Counted from the stretch's first letter, positions 41,539-41,987 are shown. The stretch: DNA of 64,000 bases from Nitrospirota bacterium (GCA_040757475.1 JBFLWW010000002.1:23818-87817); one strand, 5' to 3'. Notes: generated from the sequence alone by a model not told the origin. Numbers and translations: made by a program.

Positions 41539-41657
41539 TCCGGCGGCGACCTACTTTCCCATGACCTCACGATCATAGTATCATCGGCCCTGGAGGGCTT
41601 AACTTCCGTGTTCGGAATGGGAACGGGTGTTGCCCCTCCGGCATTGCCACCGGAAAC
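41539..41657 (-). rRNA. rrf: 5S ribosomal RNA
   Basis: The reverse complement reads ...CCGGUGGCAAUGCCGGAGGGGCAACACCCGUUCCCAUUCCGAACACGGAAGUUAAGCCC...GGGAAAGUAGGUCGCCGCCGG. This is the canonical 5S core. Ends are good to about 2 nt. Confidence 0.9.
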
Positions 41658-41685
41658 TTTTTTATAGAAATAACATCAGAATATT

Positions 41686-41736
41686 AAAAATTGCAAATTG
41701 AAAATTTTAAATTTCAAATTTAAAATCTAAAAATTC
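41686..41736. repeat. AAATTNN heptamer array between 5S rRNA and tRNA-Ala
   Basis: aaattgc aaattga aaatttt aaatttc aaattta aaatcta aaaattc. Confidence 0.8.
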
Positions 41737-41812
41737 TGGTGGAGGTGAACGGGATCGAACCGATGACCTCCTGCTTGCAAAGCAGGCGCTCTCCCATCTG
41801 AGCTACACCCCC
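41737..41812 (-). tRNA. tRNA-Ala (anticodon UGC), CCA encoded
   Basis: Reads GGGGGTGTAGCTCAGATGGGAGAGCGCCTGCTTTGCAAGCAGGAGGTCATCGGTTCGATCCCGTTCACCTCCACCA. The G3:U70 Ala identity pair is present. Confidence 0.95.
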
Positions 41813-41849
41813 ACTCAAAAATTTGCAAAGCAAATTTTTGAGTTTAAAA

Positions 41850-41926
41850 TGGTGGGCCTAATTGGAGTTGAACCAATGACCTCACCCTTATCAGGGGTGC
41901 GCTCTAACCAACTGAGCTATAGGCCC
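41850..41926 (-). tRNA. tRNA-Ile (anticodon GAU), CCA encoded
   Basis: Reads GGGCCTATAGCTCAGTTGGTTAGAGCGCACCCCTGATAAGGGTGAGGTCATTGGTTCAACTCCAATTAGGCCCACCA. Confidence 0.95.
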
Positions 41927-41957
41927 CAGAAAAGTAGGTTTTCAAAGAACACTTAAC

Positions 41958-41987
41958 AATATAACTAATATTATTCAACTTTGTCAA
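41958..41987 (-). promoter_or_regulatory. Sigma70-like promoter for the tRNA-Ile/tRNA-Ala/5S unit
   Basis: On the minus strand: TTGACA (41987-41982), an 18-nt spacer, then TATATT (41963-41958). It lies about 30 nt upstream of tRNA-Ile. Confidence 0.5.

Follow-up and report, generated by a model that had tools for sequence, protein, structure and literature searches.

Is a cluster of tRNA-Ile, tRNA-Ala and 5S ribosomal RNA (rRNA) genes without either of the large rRNA genes a working transcription unit, a leftover of a duplicated operon, or an error of assembly? This question is raised by a 64,000-nucleotide stretch of DNA from a Nitrospirota bacterium (GCA_040757475.1, JBFLWW010000002.1:23818-87817), hereafter called the window. 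In a canonical rRNA (rrn) operon, such as rrnA, rrnD and rrnH of E. coli, the promoters P1 and P2 and a leader with a boxA element are followed by 16S, tRNA-Ile(GAU), tRNA-Ala(UGC), 23S, 5S and a terminator. A preliminary description of the window had taken the locus to be the skeleton of such an operon in an unusual split organization. This view is borne out here, as an rrn-type promoter and boxA leader are present and both large rRNAs are missing. We consider the locus to be a genuine transcription unit that stands alone, is functional and descends from an rrn operon, with the 16S and 23S rRNAs encoded elsewhere, and we give this reading a probability of about 0.78.

The three RNA genes are all situated on the minus strand, as originally described, and their boundaries were set with ARAGORN and Rfam.

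41926-41850, minus strand: tRNA-Ile(GAU), found by ARAGORN and Rfam (75.0 bits), CCA encoded.
41812-41737, minus strand: tRNA-Ala(UGC), found by ARAGORN and Rfam (65.9 bits), CCA encoded, with the G3:U70 identity pair.
41654-41538, minus strand: full-length 5S rRNA gene, Rfam family RF00001, 111.1 bits.

Both tRNAs form a cloverleaf with the stated anticodon in ARAGORN and Rfam, and the encoded CCA ends as well as the G3:U70 pair of tRNA-Ala were read directly from the sequence. The 5S gene held up in the covariance-model search, where it covers model positions 1-120 with an E value of 1.4e-23 and a score far above the gathering score of 38. The spacer between tRNA-Ile and tRNA-Ala is 37 nt, the length given in the preliminary description. 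The spacer between tRNA-Ala and 5S, which had been put at 79 nt, is indeed short but measures 82 nt by the tool boundaries, a trivial difference.

No match to small-subunit or large-subunit rRNA was found by Rfam at the gathering threshold in the whole 64-kb window, and a permissive Rfam scan (E ≤ 10) of positions 41400-42100 revealed no relics of 16S or 23S in the leader or the spacers. The nearest possible 16S or 23S gene is at least 22 kb from the 5S on one side and at least 41 kb on the other, and the 5S therefore lies well apart from the rRNA genes that are normally adjacent to it. The unit is like a canonical rrn operon in the order of its small-RNA genes, its two species of spacer tRNA, its strong sigma-70 promoter and its boxA-like leader element. 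In contrast to the canonical operon, it contains neither 16S nor 23S, nor their RNase III processing stems. Where 16S would separate the promoter from the spacer tRNAs, the -10 hexamer ends 31 nt before tRNA-Ile, and where 23S would separate tRNA-Ala from 5S there is only the 82-nt spacer.

The region upstream of tRNA-Ile contains two signals of the kind that precede an rRNA operon.

41958..41987, minus strand: sigma-70-type promoter P1, TTGACA (41987-41982), 18-nt spacer, TATATT (41963-41958).
41937..41952, minus strand: boxA-like leader element of rrn type, GTGTTCTTTGAAAACC, situated 24 nt before tRNA-Ile.

P1 agrees with the consensus at 11 of 12 positions and is the promoter that had been proposed before. 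It is identical in the assembly of a sister strain (L104) that is discussed below. The boxA of the leader is GTTCTTTGAAA, the sole match in 64 kb, and the corresponding leader RNA would read GUUCUUUGAAA. The more general motif GYTCTTTGAAA also occurs a single time in the window, at the leader, against 0.17 occurrences expected over the whole window. The closest relative, L087 (5S 96.6% identical), has GCTCTTTGAAA at the equivalent position of the leader. The element agrees with the boxA antitermination element found in the leaders of rRNA operons. A strong sigma-70 promoter followed by boxA, as expected of an rrn operon, is present at the level of sequence; the boxA-like element links the predicted promoter region with descent from an rrn operon and suggests transcription modified by Nus factors. 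Together with the 37-nt and 82-nt spacers, the single strong promoter suggests that the three genes are co-transcribed.

An arrangement of this kind could arise artificially if a contig had been joined across a collapsed rRNA repeat, so that 16S and 23S were dropped. The assembly is of the metagenome type, in which rRNA regions are well known to be prone to errors. Both outer junctions are covered by two Logan contigs (run SRR29635772) that are 100% and 99.94% identical to the window. One reaches from the ligase gene upstream of the unit through the promoter into tRNA-Ile, where it ends at position 41881, and the other reaches from the ftsZ gene on the opposite side through a hairpin into the 5S, where it ends at 41622. 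Because these contigs span both junctions, there is no 16S between the promoter and tRNA-Ile, and the 5S truly abuts ftsZ. The middle 258 nt (41623-41880) are missing from the Logan contigs, which could be taken as a point in favor of an artefact.

The whole unit is present, with identical architecture, in the metagenome-assembled genome (MAG) of a sister strain (GCA_049324155.1, L104), which aligns to the window over 20.8 kb with 99.09% identity, 149 mismatches and 11 gaps. L104 has the same junctions and carries its own substitutions. Over a region of about 640 nt there are seven differences, namely six substitutions and one 5-nt indel in a spacer. The three RNA genes are free of them, and every one is located in the leader, a spacer or the trailer. 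L104 is decisive as an independent assembly but weak as a test of selection. Furthermore, the 31 nt between promoter and tRNA-Ile lie in contiguous, independently assembled sequence, the spacers hold no fragments of 16S or 23S, and direct repeats, which the loss of a 2.9-kb 23S gene from the assembly would require, are not present. About 20 divergent contigs from different samples and assemblers, described below, also show Ile-Ala-5S clusters that lack a 23S gene and have differing spacers, with promoters and terminators of their own. On the basis of the Logan contigs, the sister MAG and these divergent contigs, misassembly, which the preliminary description had named as a possible pitfall, is excluded. 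The locus is not a misassembly, and we give the artefact almost no credence.

Two other genes in L104 are affected by breaks in the reading frame. A response-regulator/HD-domain gene at L104 4737-5760 (approximately window 47100-48140) and a HisKA histidine kinase gene at L104 7724-9195 (approximately window 43650-45150) are each called as two open reading frames (ORFs). Both are a single ORF in Logan contig L082, and the kinase is single in the window too. The split ORFs of L104 are either frameshifts due to assembly error or strain-specific pseudogenes.

To find related loci, metagenome contigs were scanned for the conserved core of a 5S gene situated 100-130 nt after a tRNA-Ala-type 3' end, and 21 contigs matched. 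ARAGORN identified tRNA-Ile(GAU)-tRNA-Ala(UGC) in 20 of these, the remaining one (L089) keeping only a partial tRNA-Ala match, and all 21 contain a 5S gene with a score of 91-113 bits. No large-subunit rRNA match was found in any of the 21 contigs, several of which are 37-309 kb long. The 5S genes are 84-97% identical to that of the window, and the spacers differ. Because both the 5S genes and the spacers differ, the loci are independent evolutionary instances and not copies of one error.

The signals around these genes also recur. Among the loci that have usable upstream sequence and no upstream 16S, a promoter of the form TTGACA-18-TAT(T/A/C)(T/A/C)T ends 10-63 nt before tRNA-Ile in 12 metagenome loci as well as in the window. 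L087 has TTGACA-16-GATAAT instead, situated 71 nt before tRNA-Ile, and no TTGACA-type promoter match was found before tRNA-Ile in L103. A GC hairpin with a T-run, typical of a terminator, starts 1-15 nt after the 5S in 16 homologous loci. With a promoter at one end and a terminator at the other, the module would form a self-contained transcription unit in these loci. An alignment of 17 loci, made up of the window and 16 homologous loci, shows compensatory double changes in 13 of the 33 predicted base pairs of the 5S. These compensatory changes across loci indicate that the 5S genes are functional and under structural selection.

Several of the clusters also contain truncated tRNA-like remnants, which are found in L103 (4905-4960 and 5185-5240), in L097 (2590-2650) and in the Ile-Ala spacer of L095. 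They are situated about 110 nt upstream of a genuine tRNA-Ile or tRNA-Ala and match it through the 5' acceptor strand and the D-arm, and they lack the 3' acceptor strand. A palindrome, GTCGA(T/G)TCGAC-AGG, takes the place of the anticodon stem-loop. The replacement is identical in Ile-like and Ala-like remnants, which, judged by sequence, does not look like random decay. Ile-Ala spacers that hold such remnants also contain boxA-like GTTCTTTGA(T/C)A motifs.

The recurrence of the unit bears on a further possibility, namely that a complete 16S-Ile-Ala-23S-5S operon coexists in the genome and that the locus is a supernumerary remnant, possibly expressed, which was left when 16S and 23S were deleted from a duplicated operon. 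The 16S and 23S of this genome have not been located, the Logan contigs break inside tRNA-Ile and 5S as they would for repeated sequences, and such clusters do undergo duplication and decay, as the degenerate remnants of L097, L103 and L095 show. A dispensable remnant, however, would not be expected to show compensatory changes in its 5S, nor would its strong promoter, boxA and intact, high-scoring genes be expected to be kept in lineages that diverge by as much as about 16% in their 5S genes. The one genome paper found for this order, as far as its passing remark goes, reports a 16S-23S operon with a distant 5S and no canonical operon. The contig breaks were considered as evidence of extra copies and rejected as uninformative: tRNA and 5S k-mers are universally conserved and common to other community members, and breaks at such k-mers are normal in metagenome assemblies. 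We regard a supernumerary remnant as rather unlikely.

The recurrent clusters also include a second type of arrangement. In L088, L096 and L098, which are among the 21 scanned contigs, the 3' end of a 16S gene is found directly upstream of tRNA-Ile, and further 16S-linked contigs were fetched by means of the neighboring CoaBC protein. On the 117-kb contig L110, positions 2373-4437 contain a full-length 16S (1505.8 bits, model positions 1-1533), tRNA-Ile, tRNA-Ala and 5S, followed by a convergent kinase gene, with protein-coding genes on both sides. No 23S was found in L110, either between or beside these genes. Another MAG (L118) has the same arrangement with a 16S that is 93.6% identical to that of L110, and L111 also belongs to this set. 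This 16S-linked lineage, which we call group D, is GC-rich and comes from soil. Its neighboring genes encode a WD40 Ser/Thr kinase, NB-ARC/TPR proteins and FakA/DegV/Asp23, which tentatively suggest Terrabacteria, possibly Chloroflexota. In at least two unrelated lineages, then, the 5S remains with the spacer tRNAs and the 23S is elsewhere.

The genes on either side of the unit in the window, together with the hairpin that follows the 5S, are as follows.

40280..41437, plus strand: ftsZ, last gene of the dcw cluster (PF00091, PF12327), convergent with the RNA unit.
41489..41509, no strand assigned: GC-rich hairpin GGGGCUUCC-UUU-GGAAGCCCC lying between 5S and ftsZ, which converge.
42848-42060, minus strand: lipoate-protein ligase family gene (PF21948, PF03099), upstream of the RNA unit and on its strand.

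These flanking genes had been correctly named before. ftsZ closes a murG-murC-murB-ftsQ-ftsA-ftsZ cluster, and its product is 73-76% identical to those of the closest GTDB representatives, which are uncultured Nitrospirota and Thermodesulfovibrionales MAGs. The names of the ligase homologues include "Nitrospirota bacterium" and "Thermodesulfovibrio sp.", and the G+C content of the window is about 41%. Elsewhere in the window, at 57176-57328 on the plus strand, a tRNA-Gln(CUG) and a tRNA-Glu(CUC) are located 3 nt apart.

The hairpin at 41509-41489 had been noted previously as the element that follows the 5S. It is present, but it is not the terminator of the RNA unit. The same hairpin is found 3' of ftsZ in the relatives L001-L006, which have no 5S there, and it has no U-run on the 5S side. 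For both reasons the hairpin is a conserved terminator that belongs to ftsZ, and the RNA unit simply lies against it. It could possibly serve the unit as an additional stop or as a 3' stabilizer. The ftsZ-trailing hairpin and its C-run (GGGGCTTCC...GGAAGCCCC TCCCCCC) are conserved across Thermodesulfovibrionales relatives with 70-76% FtsZ identity, an unusual degree of conservation for an element that resembles a terminator but has no clean T-run.

Synteny was also compared in relatives, as the preliminary description had suggested, and the RNA unit is not beside ftsZ or the ligase gene there. Among the contigs with 73-76% FtsZ identity, L002 and L006 extend past ftsZ and carry no RNA genes after it, and L001, L003 and L004, which stop shortly after ftsZ, show no 5S sequence at the contig end. 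Relatives with 63-73% identity in the ligase keep a TsaD-LolA-LplA arrangement with no RNA genes beside the ligase gene. In a deep Nitrospirota group that we call group C (L091/L092), the unit is situated upstream of dnaG-rpoD in divergent orientation, and it is absent next to dnaG in the Nitrospirae MAG P0128/L116, whose RpoD is 62% identical to that of group C. A tRNA-Asn(GUU) about 170 nt after the 5S extends the group C unit (L091 3099-3174, L092 5421-5496), and an RNase P RNA is found at the end of the L092 contig (1-246). The unit is thus conserved as a module in many related lineages, and its chromosomal position is not conserved.

A position that differs in every lineage examined is also what a mobile or horizontally inserted cassette would produce, in which case the module would move between sites and would have been inserted recently between ftsZ and the ligase gene. 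This fits with the absence of RNA genes by ftsZ, the ligase gene or dnaG in relatives at 63-76% protein identity, and with the ftsZ terminator hairpin, which predates the unit. Against mobility, no integrase, transposase or other recombinase gene, no flanking or terminal repeats and no target duplication were seen at the borders of the unit in the window, and the RNA sequences track the lineage groupings with no sign of recent transfer. Ordinary rearrangement over such evolutionary distances accounts for the variable position better than mobility does, and we think a mobile cassette very unlikely.

If the locus is, as we favor, a stand-alone unit with its large rRNA genes elsewhere, the elements within its spacers may contribute to its expression. 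Two such candidates were found on the minus strand.

41813..41843, minus strand: perfect 14-bp A/U-rich hairpin ACUCAAAAAUUUGC-UUU-GCAAAUUUUUGAGU, abutting the 5' end of tRNA-Ala.
41667..41696, minus strand: candidate internal promoter of degenerate sequence within the Ala-5S spacer, TTGCAA (41696-41691), 18 nt, TG-T-TATTTC (41675-41667).

The hairpin fills the Ile-Ala spacer and has a predicted free energy of -15.2 kcal/mol (z = -6.5). Its role could be that of a processing site or of a weak terminator or attenuator. Comparable hairpins are found just 3' of tRNA-Ile in L083, L085, L097 and L101, and other loci have none. A universal hairpin at this position was therefore rejected, as it is strong in five loci and absent elsewhere. 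A conserved processing helix formed by leader and trailer around the 5S, at which the minimum-free-energy fold of the window alone had hinted, was likewise rejected, since RNAalifold on the 17 loci supported no conserved helix beyond helix I of the 5S.

The Ala-5S spacers share a motif that resembles an extended -10 element, TGnTAnnnT. It is present in 16 of 20 spacers, compared with a mean of 4.6 and a maximum of 12 in 1000 shuffles. Its typical form is TGTTATTAT, starting about 31 nt before the 5S; the start is 27-34 nt before the 5S in most Nitrospirota-like loci and 15 nt before it in L091/L092. TTGCA(A/T) is often found 18-19 nt further upstream. These features suggest a second promoter that serves the 5S. 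The window and L104 carry TGTTATTTC, with a C at the critical sixth position of the hexamer, and their copy of the internal promoter may be weak or inactive.

The mechanism we propose for the window unit is as follows. The sigma-70 promoter and the rrn-type boxA leader would give rise to a precursor of about 450 nt that contains tRNA-Ile(GAU), tRNA-Ala(UGC) and 5S. The boxA would recruit Nus factors, so that the polymerase could read through the Ile-Ala hairpin. The three mature RNAs would then be released by RNase P, by trimming of the 3' ends of the tRNAs, whose CCA is encoded, and by maturation of the 5S ends. Judging by the analogous case of Thermodesulfovibrio sp. N1, the 16S and 23S most probably form a separate 16S-23S operon, and the window unit would complement it as the other half of a partitioned operon. 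One possible route to such a state is a duplication with reciprocal losses afterwards. The preliminary description had thought of clean deletions of 16S and 23S from an ancestral operon, and either route, deletion or partition of a duplicated operon, fits the data.

The genes, the sequence signals, the independent assemblies, the recurrence and the structural constraint on the 5S are direct observations, and several points weigh against the reading that we build on them. Co-transcription, the transcription start sites and the function of boxA are all inferred from sequence. With the 16S and 23S of this genome not located, a coexisting canonical operon would be compatible with the data, as would further copies in the sample, given that Logan contigs L081 and L082 break inside the 5S and tRNA-Ile. 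That this is the sole 5S, tRNA-Ile and tRNA-Ala locus of the genome is likewise something we infer. The absence of differences in the 270 nt of RNA genes between the window and L104 compares with an expectation of about 2.4, which is statistically weak. The candidate internal promoter of the window is degenerate, and the window unit, unlike most of its homologues, has no intrinsic terminator of its own. Finally, the placement in Nitrospirota was made through proteins for the window lineage and group C only, and groups A and B were placed only by the similarity of their RNAs and promoters.

Separation of rRNA genes as such is well known. In the classic unlinked cases, such as Thermus, Rickettsia, Helicobacter and Planctomycetes, the 5S stays with the 23S. 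Here, in contrast, the 5S stays with the spacer tRNAs, in the second lineage with the 16S too, and it is the 23S that is missing. Lone 5S genes occur in Leptospira and Thermoplasma, whose rRNA genes are fully dispersed, and in some Mycoplasma. As in those cases, the 5S of the window would be transcribed separately from the 23S, but it is part of a conserved three-gene unit with the spacer tRNAs. Unlinked rRNA genes, defined by a distance of more than 1.5 kb between 16S and 23S, have been reported for example in Thermus, Deinococcus, Dehalococcoidia, Planctomycetes, Rickettsiales and Helicobacter (Brewer et al., bioRxiv 10.1101/705046). The loci studied here resemble them in that the operon is fragmented, that the fragmentation is conserved within lineages and that the organisms are free-living environmental bacteria. 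Brewer et al. score only the distance between 16S and 23S; the 5S rRNA is unmentioned, and tRNA appears once, as a typical spacer gene (bioRxiv 10.1101/705046).

The closest precedent comes from the draft genome of Thermodesulfovibrio sp. N1, for which a 16S-23S operon and a "distantly located 5S" are mentioned in a passing remark (Frank et al., PMC5165239). This organism shares with the window lineage its place in the Thermodesulfovibrionales and a 5S detached from the 23S. The text around that remark contains nothing on tRNA-Ile or tRNA-Ala beside the 5S, or on a promoter, boxA or terminator (PMC5165239). On the strength of this remark, a detached 5S is not wholly unreported in the order. 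Apart from it, no explicit description of an Ile-Ala-5S or a 16S-Ile-Ala-5S unit was found in the literature searched, which covered few subscription journals. The wording "16S-5S-23S" in a Desulfuromonas paper was considered as a precedent and rejected as loose wording. The unit is a little-described form of the fragmented or unlinked rRNA operon, a known kind of organization, and is not categorically new.

According to textbook reasoning, a shared operon guarantees equal dosage of the rRNAs. An arrangement in which the 5S stays with the spacer tRNAs and the 23S is elsewhere reverses the usual pairing of 23S and 5S. If the unit is the sole 5S locus, these genomes are natural cases in which 5S and 23S are made from separate promoters, and they bear on how assembly of the large subunit tolerates uncoupled synthesis. 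The unit also bears on the role of boxA and Nus antitermination on a transcript without a large rRNA. [quoted passage not shown]

A wider proposal follows, which we put forward tentatively and at somewhat less than an even chance. The 23S would have left the ancestral operon in two groups independently, namely in Thermodesulfovibrionia-like Nitrospirota, where the 16S left as well, and in the GC-rich lineage from soil with its 16S-Ile-Ala-5S operon; the 5S would have stayed with the spacer tRNAs. The resulting unit would be the sole source of 5S, tRNA-Ile(GAU) and tRNA-Ala(UGC), under the control of an rrn-type promoter and boxA and, in many lineages, of an extra 5S promoter. If this is true, the stoichiometry of 5S and 23S is achieved in trans, and selection keeps the linkage of 5S and tRNA rather than the textbook linkage of 23S and 5S. 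It would then be a clade-wide trait that has been overlooked by surveys based on the distance between 16S and 23S.

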